A stretch of 64,000 bases of DNA, taken from assembly GCA_015493615.1 (NCBI GenBank), contig WGCV01000010.1, positions 28,836 through 92,835 of the forward strand. Reading direction: 5' to 3'. Shown in pieces: positions 1,261-36,075 of the stretch; within the stretch, counting starts at the first letter, position 1, and each line of letters opens with the position of its first letter. Below the pieces are notes generated by a model. It was not told the DNA's origin, made no database searches, and worked only from the letters and a program-made list of their open reading frames with translations. A program made the position numbers and the translations under genes. Source of the DNA: Melioribacteraceae bacterium. GTDB taxonomy: Bacteria; Bacteroidota; Ignavibacteria; Ignavibacteriales; Melioribacteraceae.

Positions 1261-2052
1261 ATGGACGATACTGAAAAAATAAATATTTTAATTATAGATA
1301 ATCACATTAGCACTGAGATTGATTTTTCCGGAATATTTATTGAATCTAAATTCAAGATTTATCTTTCCGACGGAATTGAAAACGGACTTGAAATTGCCGC
1401 GCGTTATCTGCCCCATATAATAATTTGTTCAATTACTGATTTTGACGCCGGAAGAAAATTAATAGTTAATATTTATAACGAAGAACGCACACGTTTCCTT
1501 CCGGTGATTTATATCTCATCGTCGGTTTGGGATAAAAATGAATTCAGAGCAATAATGAATCTCGGCGCGGCGGATTATTTCCCGGCGGATTTTAAATCTG
1601 AGGATTTGGTTAAATCGGTTCAAAGAAGGGTGGCGCAAAGAATTGAGTTTAAAACTCAGATAATGGAAACTTGCCAGCGCGCTTTTGAAACTGAGAATCT
1701 GACGAAGAAAGATCATATTTTAATTACAGTCGGGAAAAGACTTCAGCTCGTAAAGTATGATCAAATTGTTTGTATCTCGGCGGAAAAGGAATATTCAAAA
1801 ATCAGAACAATGAAGGGGAAAGCCATTATTGTCCGGAAGTCGTTAAAAAGCTGGCTGGAAATTTTACCTCCGAATGACTTTTTGCGAATTCACCGTCAGA
1901 ATATCATTAACGTAAATTCAATTGAAAAAATTGAAAAAACAAAGTCGAGGAGTTATGTCGTTTATCTTAAAACTCTCTCGAAACCTCTCGAACTGAGCCG
2001 TCGCTACTCGGCAATAATGCGAAAAACTTTCTCGGGTAAAACAGAATTATAA
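1261..2052 (+). CDS. LytTR-family DNA-binding regulator with a degenerate (pseudo-)receiver domain
   Basis: The C-terminal ~100 aa match the LytTR pattern (ILITVGKRLQLVKYDQIVCISAEKEYSKIRT...FLRIHRQNIINVNSIEKI). The N-terminal CheY-like fold has IIDNH instead of DD, Ser at the expected phospho-Asp position (IIICSITDF), and no conserved Lys (DYFPAD). Confidence 0.75.
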   Translation: MDDTEKINILIIDNHISTEIDFSGIFIESKFKIYLSDGIENGLEIAARYLPHIIICSITDFDAGRKLIVNIYNEERTRFLPVIYISSSVWDKNEFRAIMNLGAADYFPADFKSEDLVKSVQRRVAQRIEFKTQIMETCQRAFETENLTKKDHILITVGKRLQLVKYDQIVCISAEKEYSKIRTMKGKAIIVRKSLKSWLEILPPNDFLRIHRQNIINVNSIEKIEKTKSRSYVVYLKTLSKPLELSRRYSAIMRKTFSGKTEL

Positions 2053-2070
2053 CGGACTTGTGTTGTTCTG

Positions 2071-2853
2071 TTATCTGTGAAATTTCCCAAACAGATATTT
2101 TTTTATTTTACCCGGGTAGTTTGTCGTTAAAGCGTCCGCGCCGAGATTAGTCATATTTAAGGCGTCTTCCGGAGTGTTGACATCGTAAAGCACGAAATCG
2201 TAGCCGCGTTTTTGTATCTCACGAATTATGTTCCCGCTGATTCCTTTGGAAAAATTCATGTCGATCCCATCGGCGTTAATCATATCAAGCGTCGTTAGCA
2301 GTTTGGATAAAACCGACTTCATGTTGTTGCAATCATCTTTGAACAGCCATTCAAAAATCCAATAAGCTTTAATGTCAGGGAAGTATTTTTTACCGCTTGT
2401 AATTACTTTTGGGTCGAAGGAAATTATTCTAATCAGCCGATGAGGAAATTTTGTTCGCCGGAGAATGTTGTTCAACTCCTCAAGGAATTTTTCCCGCCCG
2501 TCTTTTATTTCAATAAAAATCCCTTTCCCTTCGGGTATGATTTTCAATAAATCTTCGAGCAGAAGAATTCTTGTGTTTTTAAACTTCTCGCTTTTCCAAT
2601 CTCCGAAATCGAGATTCTCCATTTCCTCATACGTTGACTTAACAACGTTCATGTTTGTTTGATGCGGCGCGGTTCTAAGCGTGTGTTTATCGTGCAGACA
2701 AACAATCCGATTATCCTCGGTCAGCCAAAAATCTCCTTCAATAAAATCGGCGTCTTCCTTGAAGGCAAGAAGAAAGCTTGGCAGTGTGTTTTCCGGCGCC
2801 GCATAGGAAGCGCCGCGATGCGCAACGATGAAAGGCATTTTACGTACATTCAT
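2071..2853 (-). CDS. Glycerophosphodiester phosphodiesterase (GDPD family)
   Basis: Has the GDPD signature FIVAHRGASYAAPENTLPSF...IEGDFWLTEDNRIVCLHD. I start it at the internal Met (MNVRKMPF, 2853) because the longest ORF (to 2919) would overlap the glpD stop at 2859. Confidence 0.8.
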   Translation of the reverse strand: MNVRKMPFIVAHRGASYAAPENTLPSFLLAFKEDADFIEGDFWLTEDNRIVCLHDKHTLRTAPHQTNMNVVKSTYEEMENLDFGDWKSEKFKNTRILLLEDLLKIIPEGKGIFIEIKDGREKFLEELNNILRRTKFPHRLIRIISFDPKVITSGKKYFPDIKAYWIFEWLFKDDCNNMKSVLSKLLTTLDMINADGIDMNFSKGISGNIIREIQKRGYDFVLYDVNTPEDALNMTNLGADALTTNYPGKIKKYLFGKFHR

Positions 2854-2858
2854 TTGTT

Positions 2859-4475
2859 TTACTCCAATAAATAACCTTTTGCAAGCGATGTGTAATTTGC
2901 AATTTGCTCCTTTTCCCATTCCCGTGATTTTCCAAACTCGCGCTTCAGCAAACTTGCAACGGCAGGCGCGGCTTCAATACTGGCTTTGGCGTCAAGGAAA
3001 AGGGAACGGGTTCTTCGCGCGAGAATATCTTCAACGGTTAATGCCATTTCGTGTCTTGCCGCCCAGATAACTTCCGCTTTGATGTAAGGCAAATCGGGAT
3101 GAAGTTTTTCTCTCAGCGCTGGCGACTTGGCGAGAATGTCATTCTCAATCGCTTCTTTGTCCGCGCCGTAATAATGAAGAGGCTCGCTCGGGTTAAAATT
3201 TTTAACATATCCGTGAATCGGCATATTTTCCGTTACGGATTTTCTTTCCTCCAGTCCGCCTACGAGAATAGCTTTGTCGATAACATCTTCGCCCATTTTT
3301 CTGTAGGTTGTCCATTTTCCGCCCGTTATTGTTATTAATCCGGAAAGTGAAACCGTGATTTGATGTTTGCGGGAAATTTCTTTCGTCTCGGTCGGACTGT
3401 CGGGTGAAACGGCAAGGGGACGAAGTCCGGCAAAAATACTCAGAACGTCTTTTCTTCCGGGCGGACGGTTTAAATACTGCGCTGAAGTCGAAAGGAGAAA
3501 TTCAATTTCTTCATCAAGCGCGCGTGGTTCAAGCGTTATGTTATCGACCGGCGTATCAGTTGTGCCTACGATTACCTTATTGTGCCAGGGGACGGCAAAT
3601 AAAACTCGTCCGTCGGAAGTATGCGGAATCATTATTGCGGAATCTCCTTCGAGAAATGATTTATCCAATACGATATGCACGCCTTGACTCGGGCGAATTA
3701 AGGAAGGGGAATCGGGATTGTCAAGCTCGGCAATTTTGCCGGCAAAAACTCCGGCGGCATTAATTATTGTTTTTCCTTTCACTATAAATTCTTCGTCGTT
3801 AACTAAATCTTTAACCGAAACTCCTTCGATAAATCCATCTTTATCTTTCAATAATCCGGAAACTCGAGTGTAATTAACCGGAAGCCCCCCGTTTTCGGTA
3901 AATGTTTGCGCAAGATTAATCGCAAGGCGGGAATCATCAAATTGCCCGTCGTAATAAATTACTCCCCCTTTTAACCCGTCGTCGTTAAGGTTGGGGATTA
4001 ATCTCATGATTGTTTCTTTGTCAATTTTTCTTGAATGCCCGAACCCGAGCTTGCCCGCCATTCTGTCGTAAACTTTCATTCCGATTGAATAGAAAGGACC
4101 TTCCCACCATTCGTAATTTGGTATGATAAATTCTCTGTCCGATACAAGATGAGGAGCGTTTTGCATTAAGAGTCCGCGCTCGCGCAGGGCTTCAAACACA
4201 AGTGAAATATCACCTTCGGCAAGATAGCGAACGCCGCCGTGAACTAACTTGGTGCTCCGGCTGGAAGTCCCCTTTGCAAAATCCGCTTGCTCAAAAAGAA
4301 TCGCCGAAAATCCTCGTGAGGCGGCGTCAACTGCGGCTCCCAGTCCGGTTGCGCCTCCGCCGATAATTATTACATCCCAGATTTTGTCGGGCGATTCCTT
4401 TATTTTACTTAAGATATATTCTCTGTTCATTTTAGTCCCAGTTTTAATAGATAGAGCATAGGAAATTGTGCTCAA
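2859..4475 (-). CDS. glpD: FAD-dependent glycerol-3-phosphate dehydrogenase
   Basis: Dinucleotide-binding motif WDVIIIGGGATGLGAAVDAASRG, then KGTSSRSTKLVHGGVRYL, with GlpD-type length and C-terminal domain. An alternative start at 4430 (MNREYIL) is equally plausible. Forms an operon with the downstream GDPD gene. Confidence 0.85.
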   Translation of the reverse strand: MSTISYALSIKTGTKMNREYILSKIKESPDKIWDVIIIGGGATGLGAAVDAASRGFSAILFEQADFAKGTSSRSTKLVHGGVRYLAEGDISLVFEALRERGLLMQNAPHLVSDREFIIPNYEWWEGPFYSIGMKVYDRMAGKLGFGHSRKIDKETIMRLIPNLNDDGLKGGVIYYDGQFDDSRLAINLAQTFTENGGLPVNYTRVSGLLKDKDGFIEGVSVKDLVNDEEFIVKGKTIINAAGVFAGKIAELDNPDSPSLIRPSQGVHIVLDKSFLEGDSAIMIPHTSDGRVLFAVPWHNKVIVGTTDTPVDNITLEPRALDEEIEFLLSTSAQYLNRPPGRKDVLSIFAGLRPLAVSPDSPTETKEISRKHQITVSLSGLITITGGKWTTYRKMGEDVIDKAILVGGLEERKSVTENMPIHGYVKNFNPSEPLHYYGADKEAIENDILAKSPALREKLHPDLPYIKAEVIWAARHEMALTVEDILARRTRSLFLDAKASIEAAPAVASLLKREFGKSREWEKEQIANYTSLAKGYLLE

Positions 4476-24671: not shown

Positions 24672-24703
24672 AAGCCGCCATATTGTGGCGGCTTATTTAT
24701 TTT
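24672..24703. terminator. Strong hairpin terminator, plausibly bidirectional
   Basis: aagccgcca-tattg-tggcggctt is a 9-bp GC-rich stem followed by atttatttt. It is preceded by an A-rich stretch on the other strand. Confidence 0.75.
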
Positions 24704-24786
24704 AAAATCTGCATTGCGCGAGTAAAAACCGTATCGGCATTTCTTTATGTATGTCTGGCAATTGGATGAGCAGTATGGTTCTCCCA
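24703..24786 (-). pseudogene. Displaced, decayed copy of the 3' end of the GT9 glycosyltransferase gene (left boundary of the inserted block)
   Basis: 24703-24741 matches 35068-35106 at 38/39. 24744-24786 aligns with 35138-35180 at roughly 70%, with a 29-nt deletion. The minus-strand translation EPYCSSNCQTYIKKC compares with ESYCAANCPADIKQC in the intact gene. Confidence 0.75.
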
Positions 24787-27855: not shown

Positions 27856-29187
27856 TTATTTTCTTTTCAATATGTAATTTTTCCCTGTCTGTTCTACTTG
27901 CCATCCGTTATTCAATTCGAGTTTCCAGCCATCTCCCTTCGCTGTTTTATTTGTAATTTCAATTGGCTTTGAGATTATTACTTTATCCCAATTTTTACTT
28001 AATAAAGCTCCATTTTTAACTGTCAAAATTCCCCAATTATCTGTAATTCTAATATTTGGATAAACAGTCCCTAAATCTTTAAATGGCATAATATTCCTTG
28101 GGTCAAAGCTAATATTCATATTTTCAAAATAAATTGTTAAAGTAGGATTCTTGAGAAATTCTATTTCATATTTTGCTATTAATTTTTTGCGTTCGTTTGC
28201 TCTGTTTGTTTCAAAACTTTTTATTTTCTCAAAACCGTAATTATTCTTAATTTTATTGATGATCGCTTTAAATTCGGAAGGATTGATTGGTATGGAAACA
28301 TTAAAAAACTTGGTAATATAGTCGGTTAGGTTTGTTTTTACGGTTATTTCTTTGTTCCAGTTTTGATTTTTCATTTTCATAAAATATCCGTAAACGGGAA
28401 TAGTCACATAGGCAAAAGATCTTACAAATGTTTTATTGTTGTAAAATCTATTTATGGCTTCTATATAATGTTCTTTAAGTTGTATGTCAGTTCTATCGCT
28501 TAAAGTAGAACCGGTATATTCCGCTAATCCTTCATTCATTTCCAAGGCGTTTTCTTCTTCTTTTTCACCGGGATAAAGTTCGTCTCTATAATTTCTAAAA
28601 AATAATGCATTTTGAATATGTTTTTCTCTACCGGTAACATTTTTCGATCTTAATGCTTTTTTTAATGCTTCTAATTCCAGTTTTAGAAAAACGCGCGCAT
28701 TTAAATCATCTAAATGATTACCCGCTTTATTATTCAAGTTTTTAAACCCAAGTTCCGGCTGAATTCTATGGAATAGTTCGTGCGTTAACAGATTTAACCT
28801 TTCATTATAATCTTTCGGCAAAGGCAACATTACCATTGTCCATCTTTTTCCGTTCCAATTATGGGCTGTGTTTGAAATATTGATTTCTTTAGGTAATATT
28901 CCAACGTAAATTTTACCTTTTTTCTTTAGAATACCTTTATCGTCAGGCATATTGGCGAAAATTGTTCGGCTATTTTTATCGACTAAAAGAATGGGACCAT
29001 AGAGTTGGCGGTTCCAGAGTTTTCCATTTTCTTCAGATAAGTATTCTTTCAGGTCTTTAAAAATATGTTCATATTTTGTTATTTGACTTTTACTAATTTT
29101 TACCGTGTTGTTTTGTGCCGTATTAGAAGTGTAACTCAACAAAAAAATTGTAATAAATAAAGCTAATAGTGTTTTGATATTTTTCAT
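27856..29187 (-). CDS. Secreted hypothetical protein with an HExxH motif (putative zinc metallopeptidase)
   Basis: Signal peptide. LLTHELFHRIQPE is the only recognisable motif. Markedly AT-rich. Confidence 0.35.
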   Translation of the reverse strand: MKNIKTLLALFITIFLLSYTSNTAQNNTVKISKSQITKYEHIFKDLKEYLSEENGKLWNRQLYGPILLVDKNSRTIFANMPDDKGILKKKGKIYVGILPKEINISNTAHNWNGKRWTMVMLPLPKDYNERLNLLTHELFHRIQPELGFKNLNNKAGNHLDDLNARVFLKLELEALKKALRSKNVTGREKHIQNALFFRNYRDELYPGEKEEENALEMNEGLAEYTGSTLSDRTDIQLKEHYIEAINRFYNNKTFVRSFAYVTIPVYGYFMKMKNQNWNKEITVKTNLTDYITKFFNVSIPINPSEFKAIINKIKNNYGFEKIKSFETNRANERKKLIAKYEIEFLKNPTLTIYFENMNISFDPRNIMPFKDLGTVYPNIRITDNWGILTVKNGALLSKNWDKVIISKPIEITNKTAKGDGWKLELNNGWQVEQTGKNYILKRK

Positions 29188-29346: not shown

Positions 29347-29790
29347 TCAGCCAGCTACTCGATTGTGGGTTCGTTGTTTTAACATTTTGCTAAGTTCTTT
29401 CAATTTTTTATTTCTATTTTTTAGATTATTGATTTCGCATTGCCAAATAACAACAACTTTCCACCCCTGTATTTCTAAAGATTCATAATTTTCTTGGTCT
29501 CTTTTAATGTTTGCCTCAATTTTTGTTTTCCAAAATTCATAATTAGTTTCAGGAAGTTTTGATTTCGGGCAGTTTTTATGTCCGTGCCAGAAACAACCGT
29601 TAATAAAAATAACGGTTTTATATTTGGGCAAAACAATATCCGGCTTACCTGGATATCTTTTATCATTTTTTCTATATCTAAATCCTTTCGAAAAAAGATA
29701 TTTCCTTACCATAATTTCCGGTTTTGTCTCTTTGCCCGAAATGTTAGACATTATTTCAGACCTTTTATCTTTTGTAAATATATCAGCCAA
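29347..29790 (-). CDS. vsr: Very-short-patch repair endonuclease
   Basis: RSEIMSNISGKETKPEIMVRKYLFSKGFRYRKN...PGKPDIVLPKYKTVIFINGCFWHGH is the Vsr family signature. Overlaps dcm by 8 nt. Confidence 0.9.
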   Translation of the reverse strand: MADIFTKDKRSEIMSNISGKETKPEIMVRKYLFSKGFRYRKNDKRYPGKPDIVLPKYKTVIFINGCFWHGHKNCPKSKLPETNYEFWKTKIEANIKRDQENYESLEIQGWKVVVIWQCEINNLKNRNKKLKELSKMLKQRTHNRVAG

Positions 29791-30805
29791 TTTTTTCTTC
29801 TATATGTCGTTTAATATTATTTGCTTGAGCATAACTAAATTTAGGAGGTAATGCATTTCCGATAAGAAGAGCTAATTTGGTTTTAGGTATGTCAATAGGT
29901 AGTTTGTAATTAATAGGAAAAGATTGTAGTAAAGCTGCTTCTCTTGCAGAAATACACCGGTCTTCTTCCGGGTGTAAAAACCTTCCTTTTGACGGATTTA
30001 AACAACCTCCGGTAATGGTTGTAGAATAATCTTCCCAACGCAATCTTCCATAAACATCATTAAAACCGACATTCGGTTTTTTATGACAGTCCAATGTGAA
30101 TTCCGGTACATCTTTTCTTCCACCTCCGTTTTTAGGGATTTGCTTTATCATTTCCTTAATCCTTGCGGAATGTTTAGGAAAAATTTTATGTGCCGGATCA
30201 TTTGACTTATCGGGTGAAGGTAATTTACCGATAATATCTTTAACGGTAACTTTAATATTTTGACCTTCTGCAATATTTAAATCACCCAAAATAGAACCTA
30301 CTAAAACTAATCTTTTTCTATTTTGAGGAATGCCATAATTACGAACATTGATTATATTGTATTTTGGATTATACCCCATTTGTTTTAGTTCACGGAATAA
30401 TCGTTTGAATAAATAATAATCTTTTAATCCTGGGACATTTTCCATCATTACCGTTAAAGGTTTTAACTCTTTAACGAATCGCAGAAACTCCAAAACAAGA
30501 TTGTTTCTATCGTCTTTTACGCTTCTTTTTTTATTTAATCGCCTAATTGATGAAAATCCCTGGCAAGGAGGACAACCGGCAAGAAGATGTAAAGGTTCGC
30601 CATTTAGTAAATTTTTAATGTTTTGAGTGTCAAATTCTCTAATATCCTGTTCGTAAACAATAGTATCCGGGTGATTAAGTTTATATCCTTTTACCGCATA
30701 TTCGTCAATTTCAATTGAAGCTAAAACATTAAATCCGGCTTCTTTTAGTCCAAGACTTAAACCGCCTATTCCCGAAAATAAATCTATTGAATTAAGTTGC
30801 ATCAT
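29783..30805 (-). CDS. dcm: DNA (cytosine-5)-methyltransferase
   Basis: Motif I DLFSGIGGLSLG, motif IV GCPPCQGFS, motif VI MENVPG, motif VIII QNRKR, motif X GNALPP. 340 aa. Confidence 0.9.
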   Translation of the reverse strand: MMQLNSIDLFSGIGGLSLGLKEAGFNVLASIEIDEYAVKGYKLNHPDTIVYEQDIREFDTQNIKNLLNGEPLHLLAGCPPCQGFSSIRRLNKKRSVKDDRNNLVLEFLRFVKELKPLTVMMENVPGLKDYYLFKRLFRELKQMGYNPKYNIINVRNYGIPQNRKRLVLVGSILGDLNIAEGQNIKVTVKDIIGKLPSPDKSNDPAHKIFPKHSARIKEMIKQIPKNGGGRKDVPEFTLDCHKKPNVGFNDVYGRLRWEDYSTTITGGCLNPSKGRFLHPEEDRCISAREAALLQSFPINYKLPIDIPKTKLALLIGNALPPKFSYAQANNIKRHIEEKIG

Positions 30806-30806
30806 T

Positions 30807-32150
30807 TTAGTTATCTTTTTTCAGTTTTGAAATATTTTCTTTGATGGAGTCTTTAAGTTCAACCGAAAAATCAGGTAACCCAAATCCGGAAAAATGATTT
30901 GAAATAAATAAGAATAGCGCTGAAATAAAAGGCTCTGATATAGATAATATTTTTTCATATCCATTTAGATGTTTAAGCAACAGTTTTTGATTGGAATTAT
31001 TATCTTCTGGAATATCTATTTCAATTGATGAAAGTTCTCTCGAATTCAAAGCAAAGTCTATATATGTTTCATCTTCTAAAATCATACTTGGTAATATTGT
31101 TAAAAACTCAATTGGTGATGGGTTTACCAAACTTGACAGTGAATAACTTGTCAAGTTGCTATTATTCCGATAATTTAATCTCTTTTTAAAACTTACATTA
31201 TTTTTATCAACCTTGTGTAACTTAATTAATAACAGGTATCCAAGATTTTTATTCCAAAATTTATTAAGATGACAATCTGACGATAAAACAAGAAAATAAT
31301 CTTCTTTATGTTTTAAAATATCACCTTTTCTAATGATATTATCTGTAACTTTATGGTACAATCTATAGTGCCATAATTCTCTAATTTTGTTAACATCTCC
31401 AATATTTTCGTCATCAGTTTTAAGTTCTAAACTATTAATACCAATAGATGTCAATTCATATTTAAGTTTTTCAAGAAATATATCAATAAAATCGGATCCC
31501 GATAATTCTTTTTCACCATTCGCTGCTTTTTCGCCGAATAAACTAATAAATTGATTAAAAGATAGTTTTCCGATTTTTATCAAGATATTATCAATTGATT
31601 GTAATGTATTCTTTTTTAATATTTGATTAAGTTTAAATGAAAACAACTTTAATTTGTTTTCAATATCATTCTTTAATTTTTCAACGGAATTTTCATCGCC
31701 TTTTTTTATTAGCAAAATTCTGTCTTTATAATTGTCAAAATCAGATTCAGATAATACATTTGATACCTCATCATCTTTATCTGCTTCAGTAAAAACAGCA
31801 ATTAAACAATATTTGGTTTTTAATAGTTCTATTAAATTCTTTTTTGGGTCTTTTTCTTCGACATCCTCTCCCATATCCCAGTCAAAAATTACAATATCCG
31901 GTGAGAATAAATTGTCCGAACAATAATCAAAGAAAAATGAATGTTGTGAAAAACCAGTTAATTCGTATTCATCTTCTTTATAAAGATTATCTATTAATTC
32001 ATATAAAGCTATATCATCCCAATTACTTCTCTCTAAACTTAATAGATGTTTAAAATTATTTCTGTTGAAAATACTTTTATCATCCATATAATCGGATAAT
32101 TGAATTGCGGGAATTTTATCATCTAATATGCATATCGAATACTTACTCAT
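30807..32150 (-). CDS. Receiver (REC)-domain protein with an uncharacterised ~280-aa C-terminal (putative effector) domain
   Basis: Full CheY signature: ICILDD (D10, D11), PDIVIFDWDMG (D90), LIAVFT (T121), ILLIKKG (K149/150). There is a ~35-aa insert between beta1 and beta3. I recognise no motif in residues 170-447. Its start overlaps the upstream gene's stop (ATGA), and its stop is 1 nt from the dcm start. Confidence 0.7.
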   Translation of the reverse strand: MSKYSICILDDKIPAIQLSDYMDDKSIFNRNNFKHLLSLERSNWDDIALYELIDNLYKEDEYELTGFSQHSFFFDYCSDNLFSPDIVIFDWDMGEDVEEKDPKKNLIELLKTKYCLIAVFTEADKDDEVSNVLSESDFDNYKDRILLIKKGDENSVEKLKNDIENKLKLFSFKLNQILKKNTLQSIDNILIKIGKLSFNQFISLFGEKAANGEKELSGSDFIDIFLEKLKYELTSIGINSLELKTDDENIGDVNKIRELWHYRLYHKVTDNIIRKGDILKHKEDYFLVLSSDCHLNKFWNKNLGYLLLIKLHKVDKNNVSFKKRLNYRNNSNLTSYSLSSLVNPSPIEFLTILPSMILEDETYIDFALNSRELSSIEIDIPEDNNSNQKLLLKHLNGYEKILSISEPFISALFLFISNHFSGFGLPDFSVELKDSIKENISKLKKDN

Positions 32151-34870
32151 TTTTCCTCTTTATTTTTAGGTGTTCTACTGAAATCTATGGTGAAATGTGC
32201 TCCATTCATGTCCGGTAATCTGTCTTTTATCGGAGTTTCGTAAATTTTGGCTTTCATTGAATTCAAATATGTTTTACAAATATATAAACCCAACCCGCTT
32301 TTGGGAACTTTCAAACTATATCCGGGTTCAAATAGATATGGCCTAATAATTTCGCTGATATCAGTTCCGGTATCTGCAAAAATTAAACTTCTGAATTTTG
32401 AATTTATTTTAATCTTAATTTCTCTTTTTACGTTATTTGAATTCTCAATCCAATAAATACTATTATCAAACAAATTCCCTAAGACTTGGTTTATTGCCGA
32501 ATATCTACCGTAAACTTTGAAGTCGTCTTTCTGATTTTCGATACTAAAATCTATGTTTTTTTCTTTCATTCTCCTTTTGAAAACATCATATGAATAATTG
32601 ACGGATTTCAATATATTAAATTCATTATATCGTTCATTTCTTATAGCCCTTAAAGGTCCAAGTCTTTTAAGCTCGGTTTTCAAAGAATATGAAGTTTCTT
32701 TCAAATGTTCCAAATCCAATTTTTCAATATTTTCGCTTTTTATCAGATGTAAAATACTGTGATAAAAATTAGTCGTAATTTTATTGATTTCATGTAATGA
32801 AACGGCAACGGAAATTCCAAAACCGGCTTGTTCAACAAACTGATTTTGCACATCTTCAAGCATTTCAATACTTTTCTTCAATTCTTTAACCGAACTTTCC
32901 AGATTAATTAATCCGTCTTTTCTACCCTCGACGGTTTCCCATAATCCGTCAAAAAATGTATAGGGATCAGTGTCAAAAGGATAATTACTCTTAGCAACAT
33001 TTGATATAAATTTAGAACCGGTTTTTGTTACTTCAGATAATTTTTTAGGATTGGATATTATTCCTTTTGTCAATTTTTTGTATTCATCTCTCTTAGCAAT
33101 GTACCTAGGTTCAAGAATGTTTTTAATTATATTTTTAACCAATAACGATAAATCTTTAAAAGCTTTGTTTTCTATTAGTCCTTCACGATTGGTTTTATCT
33201 GTTAAATCAAAATTAGTGCTTTGCTCTATTTCGACATTTCCAATGAAATCGCGATAGGAAATTCTGTATGTTTGTTTCGTTTTTTCCTCTGTTAGTCCCA
33301 ACCAGTCGGTTTCGGAACCTATTTTTGCATCGAATATTAAAATATTATCTCTATAAATGGACATTCCCCCGAATTCTCCAAGATAATCAGTCAATTCAGT
33401 ATAGTTGGAAATATCTATCCAATCTTTTAATCGATACCATACATCAATATGTAAAAAGAATGCTCCACATTCAGGCACTCTTTTTCCATTTTGCGATCTC
33501 CAATAATTATCATTTGATATTCTTAAATCATAATCGTTATCAATCCATTTTTCCGGAGGAATTTTATCAGTAGGGTGTTTAAATTTTATCTCCGAATCAG
33601 CTATTCCTTTTTCAGAAACTAAAACGTCCAATGTAAAGTTCGGTTCTGATTCCTCGTAAATTAAATGTTTAGGAAGCTCTTCAATTTGAGGGCATTCCAA
33701 AAATGCATTAAAAGGCTTATAAATATTGTTTCTTTGCTTTTTGTTAATTGGAGGGTGCGGTGAATTTAGATTTAAAATAGTTCTATTCAAATCTAAAATA
33801 CTTTCTTCATCCCATTCGAAGCCATCTCGTCCACCATAAATTATAATTTGAGTTCCGGAATCACTTTCTCCATAATCTCTTGAAAGTTTCTGTTTTGATA
33901 TACTTACACCTATACTATCAAGATCAACAAACTCATCAGAGATAATATCGAATTTATCCCAATCTATTTTAAGTACAAGCTCATATTTATTTTCCTTGAC
34001 CTTTGTCCTAATTTCAAGGTGCTTGCCAAGACGATGTGTAGCAAATCTACCGACACCTTTTTCCCCTAATGGTATTCTATTTCCGTGCGCTTTTTTCAGT
34101 TGTTTAATTAAAGCATCAAATTGACCAAGATTTCCAAGTCCTTTTGCTTTTTCCCGTTCTTTTTTGATTTTTTCTTTAATATTTGTTTTAATAGTTGAAG
34201 CCGGGCGTAACCAACCGTTTTCAAGAACATCCTTTGTCATTCCAATACCATTATCTTCAACTAAAATTACGGGACCTGGTAATTCGGGAAATTTATAATC
34301 TTCTTCGTTTAATTTTTTTAAGTTATTTATTTTCTCTATTCTAACTTTGCAATAGGAAGCTTGAGCATCAATTGCATTTTTTATCAATTCTAAAATACCT
34401 ACTTTTTCCGAACCGATTAATTGTTCTCCTAAAACTTTGATAAGGTGAGCATCCGATTTGAAATTATATGATATTTCTCCTTCGAGAATAATCTCATCAA
34501 ATAGTTTTTTTGGAATTTTTCTAACTGCATTTTGTGGATTGTAATGAGGGTTTTCACTTTCAACTAATTTGCCATTTTCATCACGATGTTTGACTGGTTT
34601 TTTAAAACTTTGATAATCTTTAATAATTGCAAAATAATGGTCATTTAATTCATTATCCGGAATCACTTGAACAATCTTACCCGTACCAAAGAATTCACCC
34701 TTTCCGGATTTTACAGGCTCGTAAAAAAGAAAATTGACCGGAAGCTTTTTAAAGTAATTTAAATATGATTTTGGGAAATGATAAAGATATCCGAGGAAAT
34801 TTCGATATTTTCCTCCAGCCCTATATTGTGTTAATATTAATGCTTCTTTTTCGTTCATTATATTTTTCAT
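32147..34870 (-). CDS. Hybrid ATPase/kinase: unknown N-terminal domain + MORC/Hsp90-type GHKL ATPase + histidine-kinase core (DHp + CA)
   Basis: First GHKL module: ELIKNAIDA (161-169), VEDNGIGM (204-211), GEKGVGRF (269-276), then GGMSIYRDNILIF. Kinase core: SLHEINK (His693), LGNLFDNSIYW (798-808), DTGTD (833-837), SGLGLYICK (858-866). 907 aa, no TM segment, very AT-rich. Confidence 0.7.
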   Translation of the reverse strand: MKNIMNEKEALILTQYRAGGKYRNFLGYLYHFPKSYLNYFKKLPVNFLFYEPVKSGKGEFFGTGKIVQVIPDNELNDHYFAIIKDYQSFKKPVKHRDENGKLVESENPHYNPQNAVRKIPKKLFDEIILEGEISYNFKSDAHLIKVLGEQLIGSEKVGILELIKNAIDAQASYCKVRIEKINNLKKLNEEDYKFPELPGPVILVEDNGIGMTKDVLENGWLRPASTIKTNIKEKIKKEREKAKGLGNLGQFDALIKQLKKAHGNRIPLGEKGVGRFATHRLGKHLEIRTKVKENKYELVLKIDWDKFDIISDEFVDLDSIGVSISKQKLSRDYGESDSGTQIIIYGGRDGFEWDEESILDLNRTILNLNSPHPPINKKQRNNIYKPFNAFLECPQIEELPKHLIYEESEPNFTLDVLVSEKGIADSEIKFKHPTDKIPPEKWIDNDYDLRISNDNYWRSQNGKRVPECGAFFLHIDVWYRLKDWIDISNYTELTDYLGEFGGMSIYRDNILIFDAKIGSETDWLGLTEEKTKQTYRISYRDFIGNVEIEQSTNFDLTDKTNREGLIENKAFKDLSLLVKNIIKNILEPRYIAKRDEYKKLTKGIISNPKKLSEVTKTGSKFISNVAKSNYPFDTDPYTFFDGLWETVEGRKDGLINLESSVKELKKSIEMLEDVQNQFVEQAGFGISVAVSLHEINKITTNFYHSILHLIKSENIEKLDLEHLKETSYSLKTELKRLGPLRAIRNERYNEFNILKSVNYSYDVFKRRMKEKNIDFSIENQKDDFKVYGRYSAINQVLGNLFDNSIYWIENSNNVKREIKIKINSKFRSLIFADTGTDISEIIRPYLFEPGYSLKVPKSGLGLYICKTYLNSMKAKIYETPIKDRLPDMNGAHFTIDFSRTPKNKEEK

Positions 34871-35064: not shown

Positions 35065-36075
35065 TCATAAAATCTGCATTGCGCGTGTAAAAACCGTATC
35101 GGCATTAATTCCTCCGGCGCCTTGGAACCTGCATTGTTTTATGTCCGCAGGGCAATTGGCTGCGCAGTATGATTCTACCGGTTGAATAAAATAGGCGTCG
35201 TTTCCAATCGGACTCCACAACTGAGGCGATGCGGCGGGCAGTCGGCAGAAAAGCGTCAATGTCGGAACTTTAAGCGCGGCGGCGACATGAGACGGTCCTG
35301 TACTGGATGAAATCAATAAATCCGCCATTGCAACATCAATAAAAAATTCTCTCCCCGAGCGGCTTAAATATATTACATTTTCAATGTTCTGCAACTCTGC
35401 CGGGACTTCAAAATCCGTTACGACTACTTTTATTCCTGGCGTTTTTGATAACCGTCTTACCAGTTTGCCGTATTCGGATGCGGGCATGTTCGGCGTTGAA
35501 AATCCGTAAGTTGAATGAACCGCTACAAGCTTTTCGCCGTTGGGGCAGAACATCTTTTTCCGTTCCGCTGATTCCGCTTTTTCCCCTTCGGTAAGATGAA
35601 TTTCAGAAGCATAGTTGAAGGAGTTTATCCCGATTTTTCTGGCGAAATCAAGCGCGTAATCGGCTTCGTGGCGGAGCGGAATGTACTTGTTTCTGCTTAC
35701 GCTTTTTACTCCGGTTACGGCTTGGAAAATTTTCCAGCCTGTCCCGTATCTCTGCTTAATTCCGGCAAAAAAAAGAGCGTAATTAATCCGCTCGTCCGGT
35801 AAAATCATAAATGCGTGAGTAAACTTAAAACGCCTGATTTCTTTTACCTTTTTGAAAAAGTCGGATAATGTTTCCTGCGGAAAATCGTCCCAGAGAATTA
35901 TCCGATCTACGAAAGGATTATTTTCGTAAACGGCTTTAGTATATTTTTTTACGAGAACGGCGACAAAAGAATCGGGGAAATGTTTTTTGATTTCACGGGG
36001 AAGGGGAGTTGAAAGGACTACATCTCCGAGCCGGTCTTGCCTTACAATCAATATCCTTTTCTGTTTATTCCTCAT
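35065..36075 (-). CDS. Glycosyltransferase family 9 (heptosyltransferase-like)
   Basis: RILIVRQDRLGDVVLSTPLPREIKKHFP and LLISSSTGPSHVAAALKVPTLTLF are typical GT9 motifs. Confidence 0.8.
   Translation of the reverse strand: MRNKQKRILIVRQDRLGDVVLSTPLPREIKKHFPDSFVAVLVKKYTKAVYENNPFVDRIILWDDFPQETLSDFFKKVKEIRRFKFTHAFMILPDERINYALFFAGIKQRYGTGWKIFQAVTGVKSVSRNKYIPLRHEADYALDFARKIGINSFNYASEIHLTEGEKAESAERKKMFCPNGEKLVAVHSTYGFSTPNMPASEYGKLVRRLSKTPGIKVVVTDFEVPAELQNIENVIYLSRSGREFFIDVAMADLLISSSTGPSHVAAALKVPTLTLFCRLPAASPQLWSPIGNDAYFIQPVESYCAANCPADIKQCRFQGAGGINADTVFTRAMQIL

Follow-up and report, generated by a model that had tools for sequence, protein, structure and literature searches.

A response regulator-like gene within a four-gene operon

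The window analysed here is a stretch of 64,000 nucleotides (nt) from a Melioribacteraceae bacterium (assembly GCA_015493615.1, contig WGCV01000010.1). We focused on a gene of its minus strand, at 30807..32150, coding for a protein of 447 amino acids (aa) that resembles a response regulator (RR) and consists of a receiver (REC) domain, a helical linker and a predicted barrel domain of the MazF type. The open reading frame (ORF) runs from 32150 to 30807 in 447 codons, and the frame on the plus strand is full of stops. Apart from the list of ORFs, the gene is supported by 40 close homologues that are full-length or nearly so, and by representative protein clusters. Searching 1.84 billion representative proteins, the RR profile matched 322 clusters at 50% identity, 252 of them at E ≤ 1e-10, and among the 150 best of these 322 clusters full-length matches cover both halves of the profile. 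The ORF is therefore not a chance one.

The RR-like gene stands second in a row of four minus-strand genes that are coupled in translation. It is preceded by the gene of its cognate kinase, a 907-aa fusion of a paraMORC-type GHKL ATPase with a histidine kinase (32147..34870, minus strand; library scans, match to solved sensor kinases and ORF reading), whose stop codon overlaps the ATG of the RR by 4 nt (ATGA). One nucleotide past the RR stop codon starts the gene of a C5 cytosine DNA methyltransferase (340 aa; 29783..30805, minus strand), and its end is overlapped by 8 nt by the gene of a Vsr very-short-patch repair endonuclease (147 aa; 29347..29790, minus strand). Both of these products were recognised in Pfam, PADLOC and NCBIfam scans. 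A scan of the operon for sigma-70 promoters gave nothing above the shuffled expectation, and the promoter/terminator scan was not used.

The N-terminal part of the RR is a receiver domain

Residues 1–167 (31650..32150, minus strand) form a REC-like domain, tentatively of the Response_reg_2 type, as seen by Pfam, conservation, AlphaFold2 and Foldseek. The domain carries an acidic pair (D10/D11), a putative phospho-acceptor (D90, after β3), T121 after β4, and K149/K150, with K150 following β5. Across 32 RR homologues (35–71% identity), D10, D85, D90 and K150 never vary, and D11 hardly does. The full-length AlphaFold2 model built on the alignment of these homologues (mean predicted local distance difference test, pLDDT, 86.5; predicted template modelling score, pTM, 0.76) displays a (βα)5 REC fold, followed by a three-helix linker and then by a mainly β C-terminal domain. 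When searched against the PDB with Foldseek, the N-terminal part matched many receiver domains, with template modelling (TM) scores by target of 0.6–0.75. Both homologue conservation and structure thus agree with the complete REC signature that the original prediction had read from these positions. With fold and signature residues present, the N-terminal part of the RR belongs to the REC/CheY-like superfamily.

An insert of about 35 residues with two short helices (residues 12–46; 32013..32117, minus strand; AlphaFold2 secondary structure and conservation) had also been anticipated, with a location between β1 and β3. The insert exists, but it sits between β1 (residues 4–9) and α1 (47–58), ahead of β2. 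Its mean pairwise identity is 0.37, versus 0.44 across the whole REC region. Loop extensions in the REC part have been noted for the Response_reg_2 family too (PMC8011034). The match of the window RR to Response_reg_2 (PF19192) spans positions 87–163 only, with 17.5 bits (E = 0.0049) against a gathering score of 27 bits. The same family matches 19 of the 32 homologues at E ≤ 1 (best 5e-6), and three bear a precomputed PF19192 mark. We dismissed as chance the weak matches to PBECR2 (BECR RNase) seen in 5 of the 32 homologues: in the three of these that were scanned again, they fall in the REC region (residues 58–141), stay below threshold and contradict the model. The linker occupies residues 168–250 (31401..31649, minus strand) and, in the AlphaFold2 secondary structure, has helices at 170–193, 198–205 and 218–236.

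The C-terminal domain and the MazF/PemK fold

No family of Pfam, NCBIfam, PADLOC or PHROG matches residues 170–447, in line with the earlier view that this half is unassignable by sequence. For residues 245–447, an AlphaFold model based on a 77-sequence alignment reached a pLDDT of 92.6 and a pTM of 0.85. The 12 best PDB matches of this model in Foldseek are all MazF-type toxins (probability 0.99–1.00, TM by target 0.50–0.65, E 1.7e-3 to 4e-2), deriving from K. pneumoniae, D. radiodurans, B. subtilis and M. tuberculosis (MazF-mt1), and the probability falls to 0.25 with the next match. In BFVD, an independent library of viral structures, a "PemK-like protein" occupies ranks 1 and 3. Even when the full-length RR was searched, the MazF matches scored about as well as the receiver matches.

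The domain with this fold extends over residues 251–447 (30810..31400, minus strand; AlphaFold2 model, Foldseek, hhalign and conservation). In the model, its strands lie at 277–281, 284–288, 305–313, 350–359, 362–377 and 398–404, with a leading helix at 253–264 (including W260 and R263) and C-terminal helices at 408–420 and 430–442. The order of elements is that of MazF, with insertions at 314–349 and around 378–397. An hhalign comparison of the barrel profile with 30 PemK toxins, collected from genomes within the host's phylum, was weak (P = 0.014; P = 0.4 for the REC control). The resulting register pairs RKGDI with RRGEI, YFLVLSS with RPAVIVS, and GYLLLIKL with SVIIICPIT. We conclude that the RR's C-terminal domain very probably has the β-barrel fold of the MazF/PemK/Kid/CcdB type. 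The resemblance to such toxins that the original prediction had guessed from a sequence pattern is thus upheld, at the level of fold only. Macro-domain phosphatase and eIF2B-beta, which appeared when PDB sequences were searched with phmmer and the 77-sequence profile, were discarded as noise (E > 0.2).

The stretch from which that guess had been made, IRKGDILKH...LHKV, turned out to belong to the best-conserved segment of the protein, and hhalign reproduced the proposed register. It corresponds to a motif block at residues 273–314 (IRKGDIL...SSDCHL..FW.K..G...; 31209..31334, minus strand), recognised by conservation. The mean pairwise identity of residues 251–315 is 0.55, versus 0.44 for the REC domain. 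G276, C293 and G424 are invariant in the 77 barrel sequences and D277 is kept in 76, and each of R263, R274, L295, W299, K301, G304, S340, P354, P407 and F408 is conserved in at least 90% of them. C293 opens a short helix after β2, and it is followed by either H or D at position 294. Arg, Asp, His and Lys together would make an apt set for an RNase that, like Kid, is metal-independent. The N-terminal half of the RR is acidic (median isoelectric point 4.75) and the barrel mildly basic (8.15), which recalls antitoxin/toxin pairs and may be taken, by analogy, as weak evidence.

A mobile cassette conserved across phyla

The kinase, the RR, the C5 methylase and Vsr recur together in all 16 full-length loci, from at least eight phyla, and no further gene is common to them; one of the 16 has no Vsr match. 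The sources of these loci are Aminicenantes, Bacteroidota, Thermodesulfovibrionia, Spirochaetes, Verrucomicrobiota, Zixibacteria, Syntrophales and Planctomycetes. The gene order is that of the window in 10 of them; otherwise, the Vsr or the methylase gene is found upstream of the kinase. The same gene set is carried by three far more divergent cassettes, whose RR is 22–26% identical. Across the 16 full loci, identity ranges over 26–65% for the RR, 44–84% for the kinase and 45–87% for the methylase, meaning that the RR evolves faster than either. Since only these four genes are shared, the cassette has no separate nuclease available.

Several observations concern the mobility of the cassette. 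Its G+C content is 29–30%, versus 38–44% in the background. A pair of 39-nt direct repeats found by repeat search (left copy 24703..24741, right copy 35068..35106, both on the plus strand; 38 of 39 positions identical) brackets a 10.3-kb block that holds it. Given that strong AT-richness is limited to the cassette part (about 27.9–35.0 kb), the block may be composite. None of the 40 host relatives searched, among them 8 genomes from its own genus, has the RR gene, and elsewhere the cassette adjoins type I restriction-modification (R-M) genes, HNH nucleases and integrases. We read the four-gene cassette as horizontally acquired. A tblastn search of plasmid and phage collections gave no match.

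The original prediction had named, as a possible sign of effector modularity, that related C-terminal domains might follow other N-terminal regulatory domains. Such modularity was not seen: the 150 best of the 322 clusters include no alternative architecture of the barrel. The short matches that consist of the barrel only are gene fragments at contig edges (L054, L056) or a remnant truncated at its 5′ end (L055). Judged from these sequences, the barrel is a fixed architecture, occurring only behind this REC domain, and not a swappable effector. The truncated remnant (GCA_041224435.1, 3893-6043) has neither kinase nor REC domain, keeps its motifs intact, and stands directly before a C5 methylase and Vsr. 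In another locus (L018, 3509-8362), the genes of kinase, RR and methylase are all fragmented and Vsr is intact; this is a cassette copy in decay.

Two kinds of small genes were seen next to the kinase gene. In one of the distant cassettes (P0179, JGI 3300075153), a gene matching PF04014 (MazE_antitoxin; 950-1183) is located 90 bp upstream of the kinase (1274-3592) on the same strand. It was seen once and in none of 19 other loci inspected, and we regard it as a coincidence rather than as a regular neighbour of the cassette. In two Bacteroidales cassettes, a small ORF directly precedes or overlaps the kinase start (L009, 2355-2558; L010, 3058-3276); by eye, its product looks like a helix-turn-helix protein of the Xre type, similar to R-M controller (C) proteins. 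In the window itself, the same AT-rich stretch encodes a 443-aa protein (27856-29187, minus strand) 160 bp downstream of Vsr, with an N-terminus that by eye resembles a signal peptide, an HELFH (HExxH) motif and no family match. It is not kept beside the cassette in other loci.

The partner kinase

The kinase begins with an extra domain (residues 1–135), followed by a HATPase_c_3 module of the paraMORC type (158–308 and beyond), a His-Glu H-box (SLHEINK, with H693), and a CA domain (791–897) that matches solved sensor kinases. HEF_HK (PF19191) matched neither the whole kinase (E ≤ 1) nor residues ~610–808 (E ≤ 10). The GHKL module scores 23 bits against NF050001 (the HgiDII/BbrUII family), over the first ~160 positions and with a cut-off of 550.

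The extra domain (34466-34870, minus strand) is well conserved, with Q15, R17, Y30-H31-F32-P33, N114 and V116-R117 invariant in 15 sequences. Its only Pfam matches were weak, EVE/PUA-like ones in 3 of these 15 members (best E 0.06), and there was a match of 0.29 to a DNMT3B chain. The kinases of distant cassettes, with 772–798 aa, lack this domain. It could be a reader of modified bases.

Comparison with known systems

The Response_reg_2 (PF19192)/HEF_HK (PF19191) "two-component-like" class was described by comparative genomics alone (Bellieny-Rabelo, Pretorius & Moleleki 2021, PMC8011034). In it, a REC-like protein is encoded beside a kinase, usually with an N-terminal HATPase_c_3, and the genes are enriched near C5 methylases and Vsr. 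The window presents the features of this class: an RR-like gene with a divergent REC domain and loop insertions adjoins the gene of a soluble kinase with N-terminal HATPase_c_3, His-Glu H-box and C-terminal HATPase_c, a C5 methylase and Vsr are nearby, and Bacteroidota is among the phyla of the class. Vsr is downstream of the RR-like gene here as well, with the methylase in between. On these sequence features, the kinase/RR pair is to be placed in the Response_reg_2/HEF_HK class; however, the window RR scores below the PF19192 threshold and the kinase misses PF19191, so that the pair represents a divergent branch. The description of the class covers the REC part only and proposes a regulatory link to R-M, with no mention of the C-terminal half, of a MazF-fold output domain or of an extra N-terminal domain in the kinase. 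Full-text literature searches returned no paper that assigns the C-terminal half of the RR. The gene pair is therefore already described, and the assignment of its output domain appears to be unpublished in the literature searched.

With MazF/PemK/Kid proteins (PF02452), the modelled barrel would share the β-barrel fold and the order of secondary structure, along with motifs in register: [RK]-G-[DE]-[IV] in β1, h-h-V-h-S in β2 and h-h-h-P-h in β3. Unlike these toxins, it has insertions of ~35 and ~20 residues, additional helices at both ends, and invariants of its own (D277, C293, K301), and its partner is a REC domain in the same protein, not a neighbouring antitoxin gene.

A relay from a kinase to a REC-effector protein has been shown by experiment to serve as phage defence in Detocs (Rousset et al., 10.1101/2023.01.24.525353), which consists of the kinase DtcA, the buffer receiver DtcB and the REC-effector DtcC. 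By analogy, in the window cassette too a cytoplasmic histidine kinase may hand a phosphoryl group to a REC domain whose fusion partner is not a DNA-binding domain but an effector that arrests the cell. In contrast to Detocs, it has no DtcB-like buffer receiver, no second receiver gene and no TPR sensor, but it has its own DNA methylase and Vsr. Detocs effectors are PNP, restriction endonuclease, TOPRIM or transmembrane domains, and here the predicted effector has the MazF fold. No PADLOC model matched the kinase or the RR, and the three genes demanded for Detocs are not all present.

Other likenesses concern the ATPase. GHKL restriction systems, such as the R-M loci with paraMORC proteins (Iyer et al. 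2008, PMC2292703) and HgiDII/BbrUII (NF050001), also have, in mobile loci of R-M-like make-up, a MORC/MutL-type ATPase next to a C5 methylase and Vsr. In the window, however, the ATPase shares its chain with a histidine-kinase core and has a receiver protein as its partner, and the likeness to HgiDII is limited to the ATPase module, far under the cut-off. MADS and the other named defence systems that the literature search turned up were set aside, since their components differ.

Proposed function of the RR

We propose that the RR is a phosphorylation-controlled effector with a MazF fold, belonging to a horizontally acquired, methylase-linked kinase cassette; we consider the chances of this reading about evenly balanced. 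As modelled, the RR would probably be the "weapon" of this mobile cassette. The barrel is the best candidate for the output because no other gene of the cassette is conserved and because a methylase on a mobile cassette normally depends on some counter-selecting activity. We infer toxicity, substrate, direction of the switch, phosphotransfer and a role in defence as follows. The MORC-like module of the kinase would report on DNA relative to the mark of the linked methylase. The kinase would autophosphorylate H693 and pass the phosphoryl group to D90 of the RR. A change in the acidic half formed by REC domain and linker might then unmask the mildly basic barrel, or dimerise it, as MazF needs. 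The barrel would act as the growth-arresting or restricting effector of the cassette. RNA would be its most probable target, and G276-D277, C293 (with H/D294) and K301 would form the core of its non-canonical site.

Several results weigh against this proposal. The fold is not accompanied by detectable sequence similarity: in a Pfam scan, PF02452 matched neither the RR nor 31 homologues at E ≤ 1; a PF02452 scan of the host genome found three other loci and not that of the RR; phmmer and the 77-sequence profile gave no link to MazF among PDB sequences; and the hhalign probability to PemK is only 3.2%. Membership of the RR barrel in the PemK/MazF family is not supported by sequence. The root-mean-square deviations to the MazF-type structures are high (4.6–6.3 Å). 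Judging from the alignments, the catalytic elements of MazF are not conserved, with a short, variable hairpin of 3–12 residues in place of the long β1-β2 loop that holds the catalytic Arg, and Y, H or another residue after the P-L of β3 in place of Thr; an RNase mechanism of the MazF type can thus not be assumed. No MazE/PemI antitoxin gene occurs in the window, nor in the 19 loci inspected. Neither PADLOC nor NCBIfam knows the kinase or the RR as a defence gene. Finally, the remnant that persists without kinase and REC domain speaks for a free barrel that lacks strong toxicity or is not expressed there.

We tentatively put forward a more specific version of the proposal, which we hold possible but would not favour: R-M without a restriction enzyme. 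The kinase would tell DNA marked with 5-methylcytosine from unmarked DNA, perhaps with its N-terminal domain as a PUA/EVE-like base reader, and the His-Asp relay would fire a MazF-fold toxin whose catalytic centre, a novel one, would comprise D277, C293 and K301, the outcome being an arrested cell rather than cut DNA. Unmarked DNA would be incoming DNA, or the host's own after loss of the cassette.

A rather unlikely alternative takes the barrel for an adaptor or regulatory domain without toxicity, and the RR for a signalling protein that, once phosphorylated, binds and tunes the paraMORC-kinase, the methylase or Vsr (e.g., their methylation or repair activity). The non-conservation of the catalytic residues of MazF fits this idea, as does the barrel-only remnant lasting beside methylase and Vsr, and the fixed architecture is unlike that of typical swappable effectors; a regulatory link to R-M is also what was proposed for the class (PMC8011034). 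Nevertheless, D277, C293, K301, R274 and R263, the invariant polar or nucleophilic residues of the best-conserved segment, suggest an active site or a ligand site, and the fold relatives from both PDB and viral searches are all MazF/PemK-type toxins. Nor could any other conserved gene of the cassette give the "restriction" arm needed to make sense of a mobile cassette with a methylase.

Less probable still is a barrel that has DNA or a DNA enzyme as its target. It would then be either the restriction subunit that the cassette lacks, cooperating on unmethylated DNA with the MORC-like clamp, or a CcdB-like poison of a GHKL/topoisomerase-type ATPase. The cassette is indeed built round a DNA methylase and Vsr with no recognisable nuclease, and CcdB, which shares the MazF fold, targets gyrase. 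Yet CcdB is not among the 50 best PDB matches, of which the top ones are all MazF RNases, and the library scans revealed no PD-(D/E)XK, HNH or other nuclease signature in the barrel. The resemblance of the GHKL module to the HgiDII/BbrUII restriction enzymes, which would also favour a DNA target, is offset by its score far below the family cut-off. That the RR is a common response regulator, working as a transcription factor in housekeeping two-component signalling, as a complete REC domain encoded beside a histidine kinase could suggest, is scarcely credible and effectively refuted by the fold searches: no helix-turn-helix or other DNA-binding output domain was found in the RR by sequence or by fold, the gene is missing from the 40 host relatives searched, and in its mobile contexts it always goes together with methylase and Vsr.

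Implications

The cassette of kinase, receiver and methylase is widespread, with the RR profile alone drawing its 322 clusters from many phyla. Until now, it has been a bioinformatic prediction of a two-component system tied to R-M, with its output unassigned. A toxin fold for the output domain leads to a concrete model, that of a methylation-linked phosphorelay firing a MazF-like effector, and singles out D90, H693, D277, C293 and K301 as the residues of interest. If the model is true, the defensive two-component systems, so far Detocs, would gain a second family, and R-M-style self-marking would for the first time be seen coupled to a toxin rather than to a nuclease; the barrel would represent a new catalytic variant of the MazF fold. 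In the version without a restriction enzyme, epigenetic self-marking would be joined to an abortive-infection or addiction output.

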